Part shown: positions 54,825-63,689 of the stretch, piece after piece | Layout: each line of letters opens with the position of its first letter | Position numbering within the stretch: the stretch's first letter is position 1 | Origin: Vulcanimicrobiota bacterium | Lineage (GTDB): Bacteria; Vulcanimicrobiota; Xenobia; Xenobiales; JADMJV01 | NCBI GenBank assembly: GCA_050250895.1 | Contig: JBFWNU010000007.1 | Coordinates: forward strand, 160,001-224,000 | Direction: 5' to 3' | DNA: 64,000 nt | Made by a program: the position numbers and the translations under genes | The notes under the pieces: generated by a model | What the model was told of the DNA's origin: nothing | Databases searched by the model: none | What the model saw: the letters and a program-made list of their open reading frames with translations, nothing else

Positions 54825-55730
54825 TCAGCGATCAGCGGCTTCCCCATGCGGCGCCCACCCAGCCGGGGCCACCTCGATGGGATCGCCGGCCTCACGCTCG
54901 CTGCCGGCCCCCAGGACCGACAGGGCCACCAGGGCCAGCCCGACGACCTGGCCGTTGGCCAATCGTTCGCCCAAGAAAAGATACGCGCCGATGGAGGTGG
55001 TGGCTACCGTGGCCAGGTTGAGCACGCTGCCGCGGGCGGCGGTGTTGAGTTTGTAGCCCTCGGTCATCAGGATCTGGGCGATGCAGCCAAAGAGGCCGGC
55101 CAGGGCCAGTAACGGCCAGGCCGCATCAGGGATGCTGGCCAGGCCCCAGGGGGCCGAGCCCAGCGTGGTGACCAGCGAGAACGAGAAGACGATGACGGAG
55201 GTCGAGACCTGACCGCTCAGTCCTCGCACGGCCACATAAGCTGCTCCCGCGCAGAGACCGGCCAACAAACCGGCCACCACGCCGAGCGGGTCAAGAGCTA
55301 CGGGAGCCACGCCGCTGACCAATCCGACTCCGGCGAACCCGCACACAAACGAAGCGAAAAGGCGCCAGCTTCCACCTTCGCCGAGAAAGAGCCAGGCCAG
55401 CAGAGCCGCCCAGATAGGGGAGGTATAGGTCAAGATCACGGCCACGGACAGATCCACCCGGTCGATGGCCAGGAAGTAGAGCACCATAGCCGACCCTCCC
55501 AGCAATCCGCGCAGACCCAGCGTGGTCAGGCGGGGTCGAATGCTGGGCCAATCGCGGCGCAACTCGGGCACCACCCAGGGCAACAGGGCCAGGGCCGGAA
55601 TCAAGCTGCGCCAGAAGACCACCTGACCCAGTTGCACTCCTGGCATTCCCGAGGCTCGCTTGATGAAAAGGGCCATCGTCCCGAAGAAGAACGACGACCA
55701 CAGCAGGGCTGCGCTGGGGTGTGTCAGCAA
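54825..55730 (-). CDS. DMT/EamA family transporter
   Basis: About 10 TM helices, QVVFWRS, YTSPIW..LLAWLFLGE and FLGERL. The start is uncertain (TTG 55730). Confidence 0.85.
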   Translation of the reverse strand: MLTHPSAALLWSSFFFGTMALFIKRASGMPGVQLGQVVFWRSLIPALALLPWVVPELRRDWPSIRPRLTTLGLRGLLGGSAMVLYFLAIDRVDLSVAVILTYTSPIWAALLAWLFLGEGGSWRLFASFVCGFAGVGLVSGVAPVALDPLGVVAGLLAGLCAGAAYVAVRGLSGQVSTSVIVFSFSLVTTLGSAPWGLASIPDAAWPLLALAGLFGCIAQILMTEGYKLNTAARGSVLNLATVATTSIGAYLFLGERLANGQVVGLALVALSVLGAGSEREAGDPIEVAPAGWAPHGEAADR

Positions 55731-55792
55731 AGGACTTTTCTTTAGTGGGGGGAACTGCACAGCAACTTTTTTATCCAGACAAGGCACTCTCG

Positions 55793-57841
55793 ATGCGGCT
55801 ATTACTTGCTCTCTTCATTTTCGGCGTGGCAGCTTTCTTCTTCTTGAAGAAGGCCCATAAGCTCTACCAATACCTGAAGGCGGCCAAACCCGAGGATCGA
55901 TTCGACAATCCGGGTGAGCGACTCAAGGATGTGCTGGTCTATGCCATCGGTCAAAAGCGACTGCTCAATCGCAAATACGGCGGCCTCTTGCACGTGATGA
56001 TCTTCTGGGGATTCTGCGTTCTCTCCATTGCCAATTTTACCCTGATCGTTCGCGGCTTTGCCGGGCCGGATTTCAATCTGCCCCTGCTGGGCGTCCATGA
56101 GCCGCTGGGTGGCATCTATAACTTCATCAAAGAGATTTTCATCTGTCTGGTGATTTTGGGCGTGTGCATGGCCTTCTTTCGCCGTTTGTTGCTGCAGCCG
56201 GCTTTCCCCGAGCCGTCCATGGACGCCCTGTTCATCCTGTCGATGATCTTTAGTCTGATGGTGGTCGAACTCGTCTGGGGTGGCTGCGAGGTGGCCAAGA
56301 TCCTGGCCGAGAACGTCGGAACCGAAAGCACCATGCGGTACGCGCCGGTGACGACTTTCCTGGGGGCCAGTCTGTACAACGGCCTGGGGCCGGGCAATCC
56401 GCGTCTGGACGGGCTGCAAGAGGTGGCCTGGTGGATCAACTACGCCCTGGTGTTGGGCTTTGGCGCGTATCTGCCTTACTCAAAGCATCTTCACGTCATC
56501 ACTGGCATTCCCAACGTCTACTTCCAGAAGAAGCGTCCTTACGGCGAGCTGCGCAAGCTCGACTTCTCGGACGAGGCGGCCGAGGACTACGGCGCCTCGA
56601 CCCTCAAGGACTTCACCTGGAAGAACTTCTTCGACTGGTATTCGTGCACGGAATGCGGCCGCTGTACCTCGGTCTGTCCGGCCTATGCCAGCGGTAAGCC
56701 GCTGCATCCCAAGAAAATCTCTGAAATGCTGCGGGAAGAACTGGTCGACCATGGGGGCGGTAACCTCTTGGTCAAGTTGGCTGAAAAGACGGCCAGCGAG
56801 AACGGTCAGGCCGAGGGTGAGGAGCCCGAGTTTCGGCACCTGCAAGATAACCTGTCAGCAGTGTCTGAAGAGGCGCTCTTTGCCTGCACCACCTGTCGCG
56901 CCTGCGAGGATGCCTGTCCGGTTTTCATCGAGTATGTCCAAGAGATCGTCGACATGCGACGCTATCTGGTGCAGGCCGAGAATCGGTTTCCTGAAGAGGT
57001 GGCCCGCGCTTTCAAGAACATGGAGAACAACTCCAACCCCTGGGGGATCGGCTTTGCCACCCGAGCCGACTGGGCTCAAGAGTTGGGCGTCAAGGTCATG
57101 GCCGAAGATCCGGGCCCGATCGATGTCCTCTATTGGGTAGGGTGTGCCGGCTCCTTTGACGAGCGCAACAAGAAGGTGTCCGAGGCGATGGTCAAGATCA
57201 TGACCGCCGCCGGGGTCAAGTTCGCCATCCTGGGCCAGGAGGAGGGTTGCACCGGCGACCCGGCTCGCCGGATCGGTAACGAGTATCTCTATCAGATGTT
57301 GGCCGAGCAGAACGTGACCGCCATGAACGGCTACGGTGTCAAAAAGGTGGTGACCACCTGTCCCCATTGCTTCAACACCATCAAGAACGAGTACCCGCAG
57401 TTCGGGGGCGATTATGAGGTGCTTCACCATTCGGAGTTCATCGCTCAGTTACTCACCAAAGGCACCATCAAGGTCAAGAAGCAGGATAGTCTTGACGTTA
57501 CCTACCACGATTCTTGCTATCTCGGGCGCTACAACGAGATCTACGACGAGCCTCGCAAGGCCCTCGAAGCGGTTGGTTTCAAGCTGCAAGAGATGGAACT
57601 CTCGCGCAACCGCGGCCGTTGCTGCGGAGCGGGCGGCGGTCGCATGTGGATGGAAGAGCACGGGACCAAAGTCAACGACATGCGCCTGGATGACGCTCTG
57701 ACCGTCAATCCCAAGATGATCGCCTCGGCGTGTCCGTTCTGTTTGACCATGCTCAGCGATGCCGTCAGCAGCAAGGACATGACCGACCAGTTGGAGACCC
57801 GCGACATCGCCGAAGTTGTGGCCGACGCCCTGGTTTCTTGA
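55793..57841 (+). CDS. Membrane-bound Fe-S oxidoreductase (FadF/HdrD-like: TM domain, two [4Fe-4S] motifs, two CCG domains)
   Basis: YSKHLH, CTECGRCTSVCPA, CTTCRACEDACP, YWVGC, CTGD, TTCPHC, YHDSCYLGR, CCGAGGG and SACPFC. Confidence 0.9.
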   Translation: MRLLLALFIFGVAAFFFLKKAHKLYQYLKAAKPEDRFDNPGERLKDVLVYAIGQKRLLNRKYGGLLHVMIFWGFCVLSIANFTLIVRGFAGPDFNLPLLGVHEPLGGIYNFIKEIFICLVILGVCMAFFRRLLLQPAFPEPSMDALFILSMIFSLMVVELVWGGCEVAKILAENVGTESTMRYAPVTTFLGASLYNGLGPGNPRLDGLQEVAWWINYALVLGFGAYLPYSKHLHVITGIPNVYFQKKRPYGELRKLDFSDEAAEDYGASTLKDFTWKNFFDWYSCTECGRCTSVCPAYASGKPLHPKKISEMLREELVDHGGGNLLVKLAEKTASENGQAEGEEPEFRHLQDNLSAVSEEALFACTTCRACEDACPVFIEYVQEIVDMRRYLVQAENRFPEEVARAFKNMENNSNPWGIGFATRADWAQELGVKVMAEDPGPIDVLYWVGCAGSFDERNKKVSEAMVKIMTAAGVKFAILGQEEGCTGDPARRIGNEYLYQMLAEQNVTAMNGYGVKKVVTTCPHCFNTIKNEYPQFGGDYEVLHHSEFIAQLLTKGTIKVKKQDSLDVTYHDSCYLGRYNEIYDEPRKALEAVGFKLQEMELSRNRGRCCGAGGGRMWMEEHGTKVNDMRLDDALTVNPKMIASACPFCLTMLSDAVSSKDMTDQLETRDIAEVVADALVS

Positions 57842-58125
57842 GAATTTCTCTCGAAACTTTCCGCCCCGCGTGAGCTAGTTTCACGCTGATCTCGAGTGCT
57901 GGTAAGCCTTTGCGCACAAGGCTCGAACACACTTTTGGGGGGCGGAGTCGAGGTTTCGGCCGGTTCCCCTGCTGGTATAAGTTACCAGATCGGATGACCC
58001 GAAGGGATAGTGCTGTTGAGCGCAGAATTTGGGTTGCCCGACGCGGGGGGGATTGCGACCGACCAACGGTCTCACAAATATTCGACGGTGTGATTCACCT
58101 TCACACATAGAGCGAGGAGTGCTTG

Positions 58126-60891
58126 GTGACTAGCAAGAACGGCAAAACGACAAAGAAAAAGCTTTTTTTGATCGATGGAAATGGTCTGGCCTACCGAGCG
58201 TTTTACGCGGTTTCGCCCATGCAGACATCTTCGGGTATACCGGTGAACGCTGTGGCCGGCTTCGTCGACATGGTGCTTCGCCTTTTGAAGACCGAAAAGC
58301 CCACCCACGTGGCCGTAGCCTTCGACAAAGGGATCCCTACCGAGCGGCTTGACGCCTATCAGGACTACAACGCCCAGCGCGTCGACATGCCTGAAGATCT
58401 GGCCGTGCAATTGCCGATCATTGAAGACTTCGTGCGCGCCCTGGGCGTGCCGGTGTTCAGGGTGCATGGTCACGAAGCCGACGATTGTCTGGGAACGCTC
58501 GCCCACCGGGCCGCCAAGGAAGACTTCGAGGTCTTGATCCTCTCGGGTGACCTCGGCTTGCTGCAACTGGTCGGTCCCAACACCCGGGTGTTGACCACCC
58601 GGCGAGGCATCTCGGACATGGTCATCTATGACGAGAAGTCGGTCAAGAAGCGCTTCAATCTCAAGCCCCAACAGTTGGCCGACCTGCGCGCGCTGGCCGG
58701 TGATTCCTCGGACAACATCACGGGCGTGCCCGGCATCGGCGAGGTTACCGCCAAGAAGCTCCTGTCGCAGCACGGCAGCCTCGAAGACTTGCTTCGGTCC
58801 CTGCATCAGCTACCGGCCAAATGGCGCAATCCTCTGTCCGAGAACAAGGCTCAGGCTCTCGAGTTCAAAGCCCGTGCCTCGATCCGCACTGACCTCGAGC
58901 TGGATATCGATTGGGACAAGTGCCTCTACAGCGGCGTTCCCGTCGAACGTGTGGGCGAGATCTATCAGCGGATGGAGCTCGACAAAGTCCTCGAAGCTTT
59001 GCCCAAGGCCGGCGAACCTGGGGTCGCTGCCGAAGAGAAGCCCGATACGGTCTATTTAGTGACCGGCAAGAAGGCTCGCACCGAGTTGGCCTCTTTGGCG
59101 AAGTCCAAGGCGCCCCTCTCGATCCTCTTCCTGGGGGCCGGCAAGGAGATGGTCGGCCTGGCGGTAGCCGAAGGCGACGCCAAGGCCGTGATCGTGCCGA
59201 TCGGGAAGGGCGCCAAAGCCGTGCCGCTGACCGAAGCCTTCAAGATTCTCCAGCCTGCTCTGGAAGACCCCAAGCGTCGCAAGAACGTCCACAATCTGCG
59301 TTCGTTCCTGATGCTCGAGGTTTCTCGGGGCCTGGATCCGGGTCGCCACTTCTTCGATGTGGGCGTGGCTTCGCATCTGCTCGACTCGCGCGAGGGTAAT
59401 CCCTGGCTCGATGAGGTGGCTCGTCGCTACGGTCTTGATATTCCCGGCGAAGGCGAGTTGCTGGGCCACGGCAGCGGCTATCGCAAGCTCTCTGAAGTGC
59501 CCCTCGAAGAGCTGTCCGATTGGGCGGGACGGCGTGTGCTGGGTCTGGCTCGGCTGGCCCAGCGCCTCGAGGCTCACCTGGAAGAGAACGATCTGGCCGC
59601 TCAGTATTACACGGTCGAGTTGCCGACGGTAGTCGTCTTCTCCAAGCTCGAGCGCGACGGCGTGCCCCTCGACAAGAAGGGGCTCTCGGCGCTGGGTGAG
59701 GCCATCGATTCCCAACTGGCCGAACTCAAGACTCGCATCTATGAGGCCGCCGGAGGCAATTTCGACTTCGACGACCCTAAAGAGCTGGCCGAGGTGTTGT
59801 TCGATCGCATGGCCCTGGCTGTTTCGGCCCGTCCTAAAAATGGTGCCCTGATCGGTAATGACATCTTGACGCAGATCGCCGACCAAAACCCGATCGGGCT
59901 GATGATTCGCGACCACCGCGAGTTGACCTCACTGCGGGCTTCGTTCCAGCTGGCCCTGACTCGCTTCGAGACGCCTCGCCACGGTTGGTTCCAGCGGAGC
60001 GCCCAGTTCCCGGTCACCAACTCCGAGCGGCTCTTGTGGATGGGTCCGGCTGCCGTAGGCGGGGCGGTTGCCACCTTCAACCGGTTGCTCTCCGAGGTCG
60101 AGGGGTTGCCCAATGTCGAATTGCGTAAGCAGTTGTCATCGATGTTGCTAAAGTGCCTCAAGACCTCCAAGCGCAACCATATGTTGCTGGGCTTTGGTTA
60201 TGACCAGTTTCAGCTACGCTTGGCCGCCCATCTTTCCGGCGAGAGCAGCCTGATCGGTGGCTTCGTCAAGCACGATGATGTCGAGGCGATGCTGGCCAGT
60301 CAGGTTTCCGGCGGCGAACTGCTCAACGGAGACCGTCAGGACCTGGTCGATTCGTTGCTGGGCTCGATTGGTGCCCACCGTCTGGCCCGTCGGACCGGAA
60401 TGAGCCCGGAAGATGCCAGTGCGGCAATTCAGACCTACCTGGCCCGCTTCTATGAGAACTATAAGGGGATGGAAGCGTATTTTCAGGGAGAGCTCAACAA
60501 GGTGAAAAGCCGCGGCTGGGTCTCGAGTATCACCGGACGGCGGCGTAATCTGCCCGAGATGTCGAGCCGCAACTCCGACATTCGCGACACGGCCGAGCGC
60601 ATCGCTCGCAACGCCGCCATTCAGTCCTCGGCGGCCGATATTCTCAAGAAGGTACTGGTCGAAATCGATCGCGAGCTGCAAACCGAAAAGCTAAACGCCT
60701 CGATGGTGATGCAATTGCGGGACTTCGTGATTCTCGAGGTCGCCAAGGAGGATGTCGAGGACGTGGCCGACCGGGTGGAACGCCTGATGCATAAAGCTTT
60801 CGGGCTAGATGTGCCCCTGCAGATCACGATTTGTCAGGGCAAGGCCTGGAGTGACTGCAAGGAACTCAAGCGCGCCGCCCTTCGCCGCTAG
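58126..60891 (+). CDS. polA: DNA polymerase I-like protein with a near-intact 5'-3' exonuclease and degenerate polymerase motifs
   Basis: 5' nuclease LIDG..LAYRAFY, VAFD, EADD and GDSSDNI.GVPGIG. The PolA C-terminal scaffold (HLSGE, GRRR.LP, AERIARNAAIQSSAADI.K, L.VPL) is present, but motif A reads GYDQFQLR and motif C reads QLRDF. Confidence 0.85.
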   Translation: MTSKNGKTTKKKLFLIDGNGLAYRAFYAVSPMQTSSGIPVNAVAGFVDMVLRLLKTEKPTHVAVAFDKGIPTERLDAYQDYNAQRVDMPEDLAVQLPIIEDFVRALGVPVFRVHGHEADDCLGTLAHRAAKEDFEVLILSGDLGLLQLVGPNTRVLTTRRGISDMVIYDEKSVKKRFNLKPQQLADLRALAGDSSDNITGVPGIGEVTAKKLLSQHGSLEDLLRSLHQLPAKWRNPLSENKAQALEFKARASIRTDLELDIDWDKCLYSGVPVERVGEIYQRMELDKVLEALPKAGEPGVAAEEKPDTVYLVTGKKARTELASLAKSKAPLSILFLGAGKEMVGLAVAEGDAKAVIVPIGKGAKAVPLTEAFKILQPALEDPKRRKNVHNLRSFLMLEVSRGLDPGRHFFDVGVASHLLDSREGNPWLDEVARRYGLDIPGEGELLGHGSGYRKLSEVPLEELSDWAGRRVLGLARLAQRLEAHLEENDLAAQYYTVELPTVVVFSKLERDGVPLDKKGLSALGEAIDSQLAELKTRIYEAAGGNFDFDDPKELAEVLFDRMALAVSARPKNGALIGNDILTQIADQNPIGLMIRDHRELTSLRASFQLALTRFETPRHGWFQRSAQFPVTNSERLLWMGPAAVGGAVATFNRLLSEVEGLPNVELRKQLSSMLLKCLKTSKRNHMLLGFGYDQFQLRLAAHLSGESSLIGGFVKHDDVEAMLASQVSGGELLNGDRQDLVDSLLGSIGAHRLARRTGMSPEDASAAIQTYLARFYENYKGMEAYFQGELNKVKSRGWVSSITGRRRNLPEMSSRNSDIRDTAERIARNAAIQSSAADILKKVLVEIDRELQTEKLNASMVMQLRDFVILEVAKEDVEDVADRVERLMHKAFGLDVPLQITICQGKAWSDCKELKRAALRR

Positions 60892-61041: not shown

Positions 61042-62463
61042 ATGACCAACGCACAACCGACTGAGACGACGTCTTCGGAAACGACGCCTACTGGCGAGAA
61101 TGCCGCCACACCCAAGGCCGAGGAGTCGATGGAGTCTTTAATGGCCAGCCACGAGGCCTATGAGGATTCGTTCAAACAACTCAAGCGGGGCGAGGTCCTC
61201 ACCGGTCGTGTCGTACAAATCAATGAAGACAGCGTGATGGTTGACGTTGGTTACAAGACGGAAGGGATCGTGCCCCTGAATCAGCTGTCTCACCAGCGTG
61301 ACGTGAATCCCCATGAGGTGGTCAGCGTAGGTGACGAGATCACCGTAGTGGTCAAGAAGATCAACGACACCGAGGGCACGGTGGTGCTCTCTAAGAAGCA
61401 GGCTGACCTCGAGTCAGCCTGGCTGCGGGTCAACGACGCTTTCGAGAACGGAGAGGTCATCACGGCGACCTGCACCGAGCAGGTCAAAGGCGGCCTGATT
61501 GTCGACCTGGGACTGCGCGGCTTCGTGCCCGCCTCGCACGTCGACACTCGCCCGGTTCACGACCTGTCTGACTATGTGGGCGAACTGCTCCACCTCAAGG
61601 TGCTCGAGATCGATCGCGGCCGGCGTAAAATCGTTCTTTCGCGCAAGAAAGCTCTGGAAGAAGAGCGTAGCAAGATGAAAGAGCAGACCATGGCCGAACT
61701 CGAAGAGGGCCAGATCGTCAGTGGGCACGTGGCTCGCTTGACCAACTTCGGTGCCTTCATCAATCTCGGCGGGGTTGACGGGCTGGTTCACATCTCCGAG
61801 TTGTCGTGGAAGCGCATCAAGCACCCCAACGAAGTGGTTCGCGTGGGCGAGGCAGTCGAAGTGCGAGTGCTCAGTGTCGACCGCAGCCGCGAACGCATCT
61901 CCTTGTCGCTCAAGCAGGCCCGCCCTGACCCCTGGATGACCATGTCCGAGTCGCTGCGGGTCGGCCAGGTTCTCGATGGCCGCGTAACCAAGCTGGCCAA
62001 GAACTATGCCTTCGTCGAGATTGCCGAGGGAGTGGAAGGGCTGGTGCCTCTCAACGAACTTTCTGACTACAAAGTGGTCAAGCCGTCCGAGGTGCTCAAG
62101 CCCGACCAGCCGGTCAAGGTCAAAGTGATCGACGTCAAGCCCGACCAGCGTCGCATTACCCTGTCGATTCGCCAGGCTAGCGGCGGCAGCGGCGGGCCGG
62201 TCCCGGCGTCGGCTTCCTCCGGCTCTGGCGGTGGGTTCACCATCGGCGACCGGCTTCCGGCCAACCTTAAAGCCATGCTCGGCGTGGAAGGTGAGGCTAA
62301 TCAACAGCCCGAGGCCAAGCCTGAGAAGGCTGAGAAGCCTGAAAAGGCTGAGAAGCCTGAAAAGGCCGCCGAGCCGGCCGAGACCCCCGAAGCCTCAGAG
62401 GCCCCAGAAGCCCCGGCCGAAGCTCCGGTCGAGGCAGAGACGAACCAGGAAGTTAGCAACTGA
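61042..62463 (+). CDS. rpsA: 30S ribosomal protein S1 (four S1 domains, acidic tail with KPEKAE repeats)
   Basis: VDVGYKTEG, GLRGFVPASH, FGAFINLGGVDGLVHISEL and GVEGLVPLNE; SD AGGAG. Confidence 0.95.
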   Translation: MTNAQPTETTSSETTPTGENAATPKAEESMESLMASHEAYEDSFKQLKRGEVLTGRVVQINEDSVMVDVGYKTEGIVPLNQLSHQRDVNPHEVVSVGDEITVVVKKINDTEGTVVLSKKQADLESAWLRVNDAFENGEVITATCTEQVKGGLIVDLGLRGFVPASHVDTRPVHDLSDYVGELLHLKVLEIDRGRRKIVLSRKKALEEERSKMKEQTMAELEEGQIVSGHVARLTNFGAFINLGGVDGLVHISELSWKRIKHPNEVVRVGEAVEVRVLSVDRSRERISLSLKQARPDPWMTMSESLRVGQVLDGRVTKLAKNYAFVEIAEGVEGLVPLNELSDYKVVKPSEVLKPDQPVKVKVIDVKPDQRRITLSIRQASGGSGGPVPASASSGSGGGFTIGDRLPANLKAMLGVEGEANQQPEAKPEKAEKPEKAEKPEKAAEPAETPEASEAPEAPAEAPVEAETNQEVSN

Positions 62464-63065
62464 GTCTGGTCCTCGGGCTGACGGGCGGGATCGCGGCGGG
62501 CAAGAGCACGGTCGCGGAGATGCTCGCGGACCTCGGAGCCACCGTCATTGATGCCGATCAGGTGAGCCGCAGGCTGATGCAGCCGGGTTCGCCTGTTTTG
62601 CTTTCCCTGGCCGACGCCTTCGGCCCCGAGACCCTCGATGCGCAAGGCGAACTCAACCGCGCCTGGCTGGGCGAGCGAGTGTTTGGCGACGAAGTTGCCC
62701 TGGCGCGCCTGAACGCCCTGACGCACCCGCCGATCTGGCGGGCCATTAGTGAAGACATCGAGGCTCTGCGCGGGCGTGTGCCGGTCATCGTGTTGATGGC
62801 TCCACTGCTCTACGAGCATCAAGCCGAAGACCGCGTGGACGAGGTCTGGGTGATCGACCTCTCGGCCGAGTCCCAGCTTCAGCGCCTTCAACAACGGAAC
62901 GGCCTCAGTCTCGAGGCCGCTCGCGCCCGGGTGGCCGCCCAGATGCCCATCGCAGAGAAGGCTCGCCGGGCCGATGTGGTCATCGACAATTCCCGCTCAC
63001 TGGAGGCAACCCGCCAACAGGTCGAGAACTGTTGGAATAGCCGGATTCTACCCCGCCTTTCCTGA
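62460..63065 (+). CDS. coaE: Dephospho-CoA kinase (probable CTG start)
   Basis: The Walker A LGLTGGIAAGKSTV lies upstream of the first ATG (62520). IDAD, LNR..LG..VF, THP, PLLYE, AQMP and ADVVIDN are present. Confidence 0.93.
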   Translation: MSLVLGLTGGIAAGKSTVAEMLADLGATVIDADQVSRRLMQPGSPVLLSLADAFGPETLDAQGELNRAWLGERVFGDEVALARLNALTHPPIWRAISEDIEALRGRVPVIVLMAPLLYEHQAEDRVDEVWVIDLSAESQLQRLQQRNGLSLEAARARVAAQMPIAEKARRADVVIDNSRSLEATRQQVENCWNSRILPRLS

Positions 63066-63689
63066 ATGACCATTCGACCGCTCGCAGAAGAAACTCGCCC
63101 CCGTCGCCGACCCTGGCTTACTCCTCGAAGCTCTCCCAACCGTCGGCCACGGCCGACGGTGTCTCGGCGTCGCCTGGTGTGGCTAGCTCTGGGCTTGTTC
63201 GGTTGTCTGATGCTGGTGGGACGCTGGCTGGTCCCGCTAGGTTACCCCACAGCCATTCGGCAGGCCTCGCTCGAGGCCGGTCTCGACCCTTACCTGGTGG
63301 CTTCGGTAGTGTTTCAAGAGAGTCGCGGTCGGGCCCAGGCCCGCTCCCATGTGGGCGCGGTGGGACTGATGCAGCTGATGCCTGAAACGGCCGCCTGGAT
63401 CGGCCATCGCCACGATGTCTCGTGGCAGGCAGAGGAGCTGGCCGACCCCGAGCTGAATCTCCGTCTCGGGACGCTCTATCTACGCTATTTGATGCGTGAG
63501 TTTGCCAATAACGAGACTTCTGCCCTGGCCGCCTATAATGCGGGTCCAGGTGTGGTCTCTGGTTGGCAGGGCGAGGGGTCTCTCGAGCCCGACGAGATCC
63601 GCTATCCCGAGACCAGACACTATGTGCGCCGGATCCAGGCCGTGCGGCGGGTGCTACCGCTGCTGTATCCCGAACTGGCCCTGCGCTAA
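63066..63689 (+). CDS. Lytic transglycosylase (SLT domain), membrane-anchored
   Basis: LDPYLVASVVFQES, GAVGLMQLMPETA, NLRLGT.YL, ALAAYNAG and ETRHYV. Confidence 0.92.
   Translation: MTIRPLAEETRPRRRPWLTPRSSPNRRPRPTVSRRRLVWLALGLFGCLMLVGRWLVPLGYPTAIRQASLEAGLDPYLVASVVFQESRGRAQARSHVGAVGLMQLMPETAAWIGHRHDVSWQAEELADPELNLRLGTLYLRYLMREFANNETSALAAYNAGPGVVSGWQGEGSLEPDEIRYPETRHYVRRIQAVRRVLPLLYPELALR

Follow-up and report, generated by a model that had tools for sequence, protein, structure and literature searches.

DNA polymerase I (Pol I) is regarded as near-universal in bacteria, where its polymerase domain fills the gaps that are left after RNA primer removal, and mutants of its Klenow fragment at residues of motifs A, B, or C lose activity by orders of magnitude. 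Some reduced genomes, such as those of Buchnera and the Mollicutes, carry FEN-only "polA" genes, in which the 5' nuclease (flap endonuclease, FEN) is kept and the polymerase domain has been deleted. Among family B enzymes, archaeal PolB2-like proteins and the C-terminal inactive module of eukaryotic Pol epsilon are conserved proteins with disrupted catalytic residues that are presumed to serve a structural role. Inactivated archaeal enzymes of this kind are the subject of PMC2669801. Herein we examine a gene within a 64,000-nucleotide stretch of a Vulcanimicrobiota genome (order Xenobiales; contig JBFWNU010000007.1, positions 160,001 to 224,000 of the forward strand; hereafter "the window") that encodes a full-length homolog of Pol I whose polymerase active site appears to have been lost. 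We refer to the product as psi-PolA.

The psi-PolA gene is a single open reading frame (ORF) with zero internal stops when translated from the window, and the identical database protein, at 921 residues, is read as starting with the GTG codon at 58126. In HMMER alignments, the protein matches Taq Pol I and Mycobacterium smegmatis Pol1 over its entire length. In the alignment with the Taq enzyme, the catalytic Asp of motif A is replaced by Gly692 and the steric-gate Glu by Gln697. Motif B, the O-helix, is altered more extensively: Taq RRAAKTINFGVLYG is aligned to GDRQDLVDSLLGSIG in psi-PolA, and the Arg, Lys, Phe, and Tyr residues of the canonical motif are all absent. Motif C retains its Asp (Asp867), with Arg in place of His and Phe in place of Glu, and the segment containing TGRLSS and PNLQN has no recognizable counterpart. 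A first-pass annotation, made from the window's letters, had described an intact Pol I-like frame of about 920 codons with GYDQFQLR at motif A, an unrecognizable motif B, LRDF at motif C, and no TGRLSS/PNLQ. The Pfam domain matches and the alignment agree with this description throughout, and they add a three-residue deletion in motif B and an 18-residue insertion that disrupts the TGRLSS/PNLQ segment.

To place these changes in a family context, 28 full-length psi-PolA members from the window's family (f1) and two sister families (f2 and f3) were aligned residue by residue and compared with 28 canonical PolAs. The position of the motif A Asp is occupied by Gly (4 members), Ser (11), Ala (1), Arg (8), or Glu (4). 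The Asp of motif C is retained in 19 of 19 members from f1 and f2, and is Asn in 9 of 9 members from f3. Because the four sequences with Glu in motif A all carry the motif C Asn, carboxylates are present at both positions in 0 of the 28 members. The motif B Lys is likewise found in none and the Tyr in one, and the three-residue deletion, which removes Asn-Phe, is common to all 28, as is the 18-residue insertion. Since the same pattern is present in every aligned ortholog, the substitutions are not due to chance.

Thus, the polymerase site of psi-PolA is dead by every sequence criterion. One metal-binding carboxylate is absent in every member and the O-helix signature for deoxynucleoside triphosphate (dNTP) binding is gone, and therefore the protein is predicted to be unable to add nucleotides. 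It is very improbable that psi-PolA is a still-working polymerase that relies on noncanonical residues. The retention of Asp867 in f1 and f2 and the intact predicted fold would be in keeping with such activity, and the first-pass annotation had suggested that the Asp located two residues downstream in motif A (GYD) might compensate for the missing one. However, Asp occupies this downstream position in only 6 of the 28 orthologs, which speaks against the suggestion, and the lack of a complete pair of catalytic carboxylates and the shortened O-helix lacking its Arg, Lys, Phe, and Tyr residues also argue against continued catalysis.

Other parts of the polymerase domain have been preserved to a limited extent. 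Among 92 columns that are invariant in the 28 canonical polymerase domains, 34 are kept in f1 and f2 and 23 in f3. The surviving features include an Arg that can be aligned with the Arg of TGRLSS, a GRRR..PE motif, and the sequence ER.AR..IQ..AAD, whose Gln is retained in 19 of 19 f1 and f2 members. More broadly, 50 homologs have in common many invariant Arg and Lys residues as well as the motifs RRRxxPE and SRNSDIR. We take the retained residues to be ones that lean toward contacts with the DNA duplex rather than with the dNTP, as judged by Klenow and Taq complexes. The insertion carries its own conserved motif in f1 and f2, ERLLWMGP..VGGAVATFNRLL..LPN, and the invariant columns of this region among the 50 sequences are E635, R636, W639, M640, G641, P642, G646, G647, R654, L656, L662, and N664.

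The presence of invariant, family-specific residues at and near the former active site raises the question of whether the domain has gained a new catalytic or ligand-binding role, for example as a lyase or a nucleotide-dependent switch, by way of the insertion together with Asp867, Glu872, Asp839, and Lys842. The very low ratio of nonsynonymous to synonymous substitution rates (dN/dS) for this domain in some pairs of genomes (0.017 to 0.034) is consistent with a role of this kind. However, members of f3 have Asn in place of Asp867 and have lost many of the other residues, which leaves no alternative site that is common to the whole family, and searches of Pfam and NCBIfam yield no match to another enzyme family. 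We consider such a gain of function improbable.

Homology and predicted fold place psi-PolA in the family A superfamily. The DNA_pol_A model is matched at 218.9 bits against a gathering cut-off of 34.3 (222 bits in a genome-wide scan), and the nuclease region matches 5_3_exonuc_N at 179 bits and 5_3_exonuc at 88 bits. Both NCBIfam Pol I equivalogs are missed (NF004397 scores 608.3 with a cut-off of 720, and TIGR00593 scores 565.6 with a cut-off of 600). An AlphaFold2 model of the protein has a mean predicted local distance difference test (pLDDT) score of 84.5 and a predicted template modeling (pTM) score of 0.83, with low confidence limited to the FEN arch and amino acids 619-634. When this model was searched with Foldseek (E values of 1e-30 to 4e-41), full-length Taq and M. 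smegmatis Pol1 were matched, and superposition gives template modeling (TM) scores of 0.77-0.81 normalized to the Bst large fragment and Klenow. The middle domain, which corresponds to the 3'-5' exonuclease region of Pol I, matches PF22619 (DNA_polI_exo1) at 17.7 bits, under its cut-off of 27, and at the level of Pfam profiles there is no match to the proofreading exonuclease PF01612. This region is predicted to fold, with pLDDT values mostly of 70-95.

The distribution of psi-PolA was established by a Pfam survey of 40 genomes of the order, which represent f1 (16 genomes), f2 (5 genomes), and f3 (19 genomes). A psi-type match is present in all 40, with full-length open frames throughout. In f1, the degenerate protein is found in 16 of 16 genomes (160-222 bits, full-length) alongside a canonical PolA in 15 of 16 (460-509 bits), and the genome that lacks the latter is 78% complete. 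In contrast, the degenerate form occurs without a canonical PolA in f2 (5/5 versus 0/5; degenerate form at 241-248 bits) and in f3 (19/19 versus 0/19; 54-159 bits). Thus, the survey detects no canonical PolA in 24 of 24 f2 and f3 genomes, some of which are 96-98% complete. Likewise, protein searching across 41 related genomes finds a close full-length relative of psi-PolA in every family of the order, with identities to the window's protein of 53-78% in f1 and f2 and 36-43% in f3. The group is sharply bounded: a protein database contains about 77 psi clusters at 354-970 bits, and the next match scores 182 bits.

Rates of substitution indicate that psi-PolA is under purifying selection and is not decaying. 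Ortholog ORFs were taken by BLAST-guided frame choice, and dN/dS was calculated pairwise by the NG86 (Nei-Gojobori) method. For the polymerase domain, values of 0.017 (dS 0.36) and 0.13 (dS 0.70) were obtained with two pairs from f2, 0.034 (dS 0.91) with a pair from genus g2 of f1, and 0.14-0.16 (dS 0.5-0.7) with two pairs from genus g8 of f3. Conservation is strongest in the FEN domain, with dN/dS of 0.015-0.08, and in f1 this domain is under tighter constraint than its counterpart in the canonical copy from the same genera. The expectation that relatives would share the same losses under purifying selection is therefore upheld by these values and by the pattern seen in 28 of 28 members.

Additional evidence for constraint comes from contigs of wastewater RNA libraries (four metatranscriptome runs of one study), which cover positions 58000-58603 and derive from a relative that is 96-97% identical. 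Within the ORF, 15 of the 19 differences are at third codon positions, and thus the contigs show that this close relative is under purifying selection. As evidence of transcription, they offer at best a weak hint, and stretches that they leave uncovered carry no meaning. These contigs also reveal that a close relative of the window's organism occurs in wastewater-type samples.

The chance that the gene is a decaying pseudogene, or an artifact of assembly or binning, is negligible given these data. In favor of decay, degeneration within f1 is greatest in the window's genus, as seen with its RDF and SGDLG sequences. However, the intact frame, the presence of a psi-type match in 40 of 40 genomes, dN/dS values far under 1, the conserved gene order described below, and the third-position bias of the near-identical relative are all contrary to this explanation.

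Two lines of evidence bear on the origin of the gene. In a tree of the FEN domain, the psi family and the canonical PolAs of the same class together form one side of a branch with a support value of 97. In full-length trees, the internal branching of the psi family matches taxonomy but the attachment of the psi clade is left without resolution, and only the FEN-domain tree resolves it. Gene order is also conserved. A gene for an HdrD/GlpC-like protein adjoins psi-polA in 18 of 20 f1 and f2 loci, and one for a four-S1-domain protein adjoins it in 17 of 20 f1 and f2 loci and in 5 of 9 f3 loci. The same S1 gene adjoins the canonical polA of a class relative (L062). Because of this conserved order and the FEN-domain tree, psi-polA is the vertically inherited polA ortholog of the lineage rather than a spare paralog.

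The window's genome (9.5 Mb, 17 contigs, 99.6% complete) contains two family A polymerase genes, the second of which is a canonical polA on contig C5 (L001, ~286339-288963). Its 874-amino-acid product matches DNA_pol_A at 509 bits, carries intact motifs (DWSQIELR, AKTVNFATIYG, and IHDE), and passes both NCBIfam equivalogs (NF004397, 996.4 versus 720; TIGR00593, 911.1 versus 600). The canonical PolAs of f1 form their own clade and, over their full length, are only 35-40% identical to PolAs of their own phylum. Their polymerase domains are 59-65% identical to PolAs labeled as Polyangia, Enhygromyxa, Myxococcales, Deltaproteobacteria, and Thermoanaerobaculia, and the tree groups them with PolAs of Polyangia, Enhygromyxa, and Thermoanaerobaculia with a support value of 100. 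Contamination does not account for these genes because their internal branching matches the genera of f1. Judged by these sequence relationships, the canonical polA is a Myxococcota-like xenolog that, within the order, is confined to f1. The first-pass annotation had envisioned an active Pol I elsewhere in the genome or none at all. A canonical gene is indeed present, but it is the newcomer, and f2 and f3 possess only the dead form.

In genus g2, some genomes have an additional, third PolA, which is canonical and nested among the PolAs of another family of the phylum, with 62% identity (L040 on G012 C414, and loci on G002 C3 and G008 C70). In the rest of the phylum, canonical-level PolA scores were obtained for 169 of 201 sampled genomes, including three genomes with a match that belong to the same class but fall outside the order. 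This tally takes in two genomes flagged as unpublished (G127 and G177), both canonical, and the conclusion is independent of them. Two further genomes, G041 and G183, have intermediate PolA Pfam scores (E values of 1e-85 and 7e-97); one of these genomes reaches only 62% completeness, and the other shows three matches, such that its gene may be split.

If psi-PolA cannot synthesize DNA, another enzyme might be expected to do so, and a family B polymerase (PolB) of ~730-750 amino acids was found in 5 of 5 genomes of the order that were tested. In the window's genome it is a 726-amino-acid protein encoded on the minus strand of contig C1 (G000, L090:4053-6230), with intact motifs DVASLYPS, KILINSFYGYLGF, and DTDG. 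The corresponding motifs DxxSLYPS, KxxxNSxYG, and DTD are invariant across 9 of 9 lineages compared. The best solved relatives are archaeal PolBs, at 118 bits versus 45 bits for Escherichia coli Pol II, and the protein reaches zero NCBIfam cut-offs. Its ExoI "DIE" motif appears to be lost in the window's genome and retained in other lineages of the phylum. Among other polymerases, nothing specific was noted: there are one to two DnaE proteins per genome, and four of the five genomes have a Y-family polymerase, G017 being the one in which none was detected. The PF14792 (PolX) model gave no match in most control genomes that are expected to carry PolX, and thus a negative result with this model is uninformative.

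The distribution of PolB was examined in 101 genomes sampled from the phylum. PolB is present in 3 of 3 genomes from f2 and in 18 of 19 from f3, where the genome that lacks it is 92% complete. Within f1 it is present in genera g1 and g3 and in 0 of 5 genomes from genus g2, which is the only PolB-free part of the order and has one or two canonical PolAs instead. Outside of the order, PolB is present in a few other families and in none of the 32 genomes from the largest family (f15). Overall, PolB occurs in 25 of 26 genomes without a canonical PolA, compared with 15 of 74 genomes with one. The candidates for DNA synthesis therefore differ by group, with PolB only in f2 and f3, PolB plus the xenolog in g1 and g3, and the xenolog or xenologs only in g2. 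Each genome of the order that was sampled for both genes, except for the 92%-complete member of f3, has at least one apparently active candidate.

Four genomes from other families of the phylum, in which PolA scores were intermediate, hold another PolA that has degenerated separately (L080-L083 in G057, G046, G052, and G062; families f11, f17, and f18). In each of them, it is the sole family A gene. Motif C reads HNS, REE, GNI, or GHE in these proteins, and E, D, E, or A stands at the motif A Asp position. Substitution of motif B is partial. The insertion and the deletion that are characteristic of psi-PolA are both absent, and the FEN domain is fully intact, including its arch lysine. Because these proteins form their own clade and are further from psi-PolA than are the canonical PolAs of its class relatives, their degeneration represents a second event. 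All four genomes carry a PolB of the same family that is 39-42% identical to that of the window's genome.

The condition of the 5' nuclease domain is important for understanding why psi-PolA has been kept. In the available part of PMC3783174, the first metal site (Cat1) of T5 FEN is formed by D26, D68, E128, D130, and D153, and the second (Cat2) by D155, D201, and D204. That source reports that Cat1 is necessary and sufficient for flap cleavage by T5 FEN, and that E. coli ExoIX is active without Cat2. All five Cat1 carboxylates are present in the window's psi-PolA (D18, D68, E118, D120, and D143). This fits the first-pass description of an SGDLG sequence within a nuclease that retains most of its carboxylates, two of the three Cat2 ligands being left. 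The ADKD sequence of Taq is aligned to GDLG, and at the affected position (145) the window's genus has Gly, as do four proteins from genus g5 (L028-L031), most other members have Asp, and L027 has Glu. Six carboxylates (D18, D68, D120, D121, D143, and D194) do not vary among the 28 members of the family, and 25 of 34 canonical-invariant columns are kept in the FEN domain. Given the complete Cat1 site and its sufficiency in the systems described in PMC3783174, it is plausible that psi-PolA is a flap endonuclease with reduced or altered activity.

Our preferred explanation, which we hold with moderate confidence, is that psi-PolA is the polymerase-dead form of the ancestral polA product, kept as a DNA-binding scaffold with an altered 5' nuclease. 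The polymerase active site would have been lost in the ancestor of the order, after which the protein was maintained as a pseudo-polymerase. Through its dead polymerase cleft, psi-PolA may bind nicked, gapped, or flapped DNA at junctions formed during Okazaki fragment maturation or repair. There it could either cut 5' flaps with an ExoIX-like nuclease that lacks the arch lysine, or hold the junction for other enzymes. Synthesis would then be carried out by another polymerase, which in the window's genome might be the xenologous PolA, PolB, or both, and in the sister families PolB alone.

Several observations weigh against this explanation. One of the three Cat2 Asp residues is lost in the window's protein, where the site reads G145, D194, and D197. 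The arch lysine, the counterpart of T5 Lys83, has given way to Asn in all 28 psi members, compared with Lys in 28 of 28 canonical PolAs. The available part of PMC3783174 describes this lysine as conserved throughout prokaryotic FENs, and reports that an ExoIX mutant lacking it has greatly reduced activity, with some retained. Because both the arch lysine and one Cat2 Asp have been lost, the psi nuclease may be weak or dead. In addition, complete stand-alone FENs exist in each of four genomes checked, and thus the nuclease of psi-PolA need not be essential. The closest pair for the window's protein gives a polymerase-domain dN/dS of 0.14 with dS saturated at ~1.8, and the RNA contigs are short, span only the first 480 nucleotides of the gene, and might reflect carry-over of DNA. 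Moreover, PolB is also present in some lineages that have a canonical PolA, and its association with PolA loss is a lead rather than proof because the genomes are related and represent about two independent events.

With regard to stand-alone FENs, the arch lysine is retained in 6 of 6 such proteins from four genomes of the order, as it is in the second degenerate PolA lineage. The window's genome has two FEN-like genes of this type, L101 (G000 C1:2221294-2222160) and L102 (C4:262088-262894). Both products have Cat2 and the arch Lys. The Cat1 site is complete in one and shows a conservative Asp to Glu change in the other, and one of the two has Glu where others have an arch Arg.

Some of these same features could be accommodated by a fully noncatalytic scaffold, in which the polymerase and the 5' nuclease are both dead and the protein serves only to bind DNA structures or to recruit partners, which might be PolB, ligase, the clamp, or a stand-alone FEN. 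The Asn at the arch position in every member and the stand-alone FENs would be expected in that case, as would the absence of Cat2 ligands from several lineages (the window's genus has G145, and L028-L031 have both G145 and Q197), the change of the Cat1 residue Glu118 to Gln in genus g2, and a conserved insertion without catalytic-looking residues. However, it is hard to explain without metal binding why six FEN carboxylates are invariant in 28 of 28 members and why this is the most tightly constrained domain. Furthermore, ExoIX is active on Cat1 alone and its lysine mutant is partly active, according to the portion of PMC3783174 noted above. We regard complete loss of catalysis as rather unlikely, and favor the scaffold with an altered nuclease. 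The first-pass annotation had likewise proposed a flap nuclease with a DNA-binding scaffold, a view that the preserved Cat1 site sustains and that Asn83, the Cat2 loss, and the stand-alone FENs weaken.

A bolder proposal, which is possible though doubtful, is that the archaeal-like PolB displaced the polymerase of Pol I in Okazaki fragment maturation and gap repair, and did so independently in two lineages of the phylum. The ancestral Pol I would then have become a silent junction scaffold, perhaps dead at both sites, that organizes PolB, a stand-alone FEN, and ligase. If true, this would be a bacterial reinvention of the PolB-plus-FEN arrangement of archaea and eukaryotes, and psi-PolA would be the first natural family A pseudo-polymerase.

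The features of psi-PolA and its neighbors in the window are listed below. The first-pass annotation had cited polA-coaE(-slt) as a common gene order. The coaE and slt genes do lie downstream, but polA and coaE are separated by the gene for the four-S1-domain protein.

Table. Coordinates of psi-PolA, its domains and motifs, and adjacent genes, numbered from the first nucleotide of the window.
Feature	Position	Strand	Extent	Remarks
psi-PolA (predicted polymerase-dead PolA ortholog)	58123..60891	+	922 aa (amino acids) from TTG 58123; 921 aa from GTG 58126	
5' nuclease (FEN) domain	58159..58932	+	aa 13-270	Pfam, residue-site table, dN/dS
Asn83 at FEN arch lysine	58369..58371	+		T5 FEN Lys83 equivalent
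SGDLG	58543..58557	+	aa 141-145	Gly145 at Taq D144 / T5 D155 position
Putative vestigial 3'-5' exonuclease-like middle domain	59008..59562	+	aa ~296-480	Sub-cut-off Pfam match, model pLDDT
Predicted pseudo-polymerase domain	59680..60852	+	aa 520-910	Family A fold, Pfam and Foldseek
Remodeled TGRLSS..PNLQN segment	60028..60114	+	aa ~636-664	18-residue insertion
Degenerate motif A, FGYDQFQLR	60193..60219	+	aa 691-699	Aligned to Taq LDYSQIELR
Degenerate motif B (O-helix), DRQDLVDSLLGSIG	60331..60372	+		Three-residue deletion; Lys, Phe, Tyr lost
Motif C, LRDF	60715..60726	+	aa 865-868	Taq VHDE equivalent
HdrD/GlpC-like protein, 4Fe-4S dicluster and two CCG domains	55721..57841	+	706 aa	Pfam; directly upstream neighbor
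Four-S1-domain protein	61042..62463	+	473 aa	Pfam; downstream neighbor, between polA and coaE
coaE (dephospho-CoA kinase)	62520..63065	+		Pfam, 152 bits
SLT-domain lytic transglycosylase	63066..63689	+		Pfam, 95 bits

The existence of an entire order that retains a polA gene apparently without polymerase chemistry provides a natural experiment that might reveal which parts of Pol I serve purposes other than synthesis. It also offers a candidate case of polymerase family replacement, in which the substitute would be either PolB or a horizontally acquired PolA. There is a practical consequence as well. Database entries for psi proteins bear the names "DNA polymerase I" or "hypothetical protein," and because of such annotation, replication and metabolic reconstructions of Eremiobacterota/Xenobia genomes would miscount polymerases. 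Full-text literature searches and a term search of the 2023 reclassification of family A polymerases (PMC10201439), a scope that excludes subscription journals and supplements, brought up neither a bacterial Pol I that is polymerase-dead in nature nor the psi family.

Compared with the bacterial Pol I enzymes of Taq, Klenow, and M. smegmatis, psi-PolA has the same length, the same order of FEN, exonuclease-like, and polymerase domains, and the same fold in its predicted model. It is also encoded at the polA locus and is sister to the canonical PolA of its own class. The protein differs from these enzymes in that motifs A and B and part of motif C are missing, TGRLSS/PNLQN is remodeled, the arch lysine is lost, and scores fall under the equivalog cut-offs. 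The nuclease more closely resembles E. coli ExoIX (Xni), in which Cat1 is intact and Cat2 is degraded. Indeed, Gly145 of psi-PolA is the same change as Gly129 of ExoIX at the position of T5 D155, as given in the available part of PMC3783174. However, ExoIX is a stand-alone protein of ~250 amino acids that lacks all three Cat2 Asp residues and keeps the arch lysine, whereas psi-PolA has lost one Cat2 Asp, carries the Lys to Asn change, and is fused to a predicted pseudo-polymerase.

The division of labor that is proposed here has a likeness in archaea. Okazaki fragment maturation in Thermococcus involves PolB, Fen1, and ligase, as outlined in the available part of PMC4432273, and the split that we propose between synthesis by a family B polymerase and flap handling by a separate FEN-fold protein would parallel that system. 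The archaeal pathway differs in being based on PCNA, and the link between bacterial PolB and psi-PolA is a proposal only.

Unlike the FEN-only polA genes of reduced genomes, psi-PolA keeps a polymerase domain that is predicted to fold and is under purifying selection, and its hosts are free-living bacteria with genomes of 2-9.5 Mb. The inactivated family B polymerases present a different likeness, since they too are full-length, conserved polymerase homologs with disrupted catalytic residues. Those proteins belong to family B and to archaea and eukaryotes, whereas psi-PolA belongs to family A, is bacterial, and is fused to a 5' nuclease. In this respect, psi-PolA may be viewed as a bacterial counterpart of these family B proteins.

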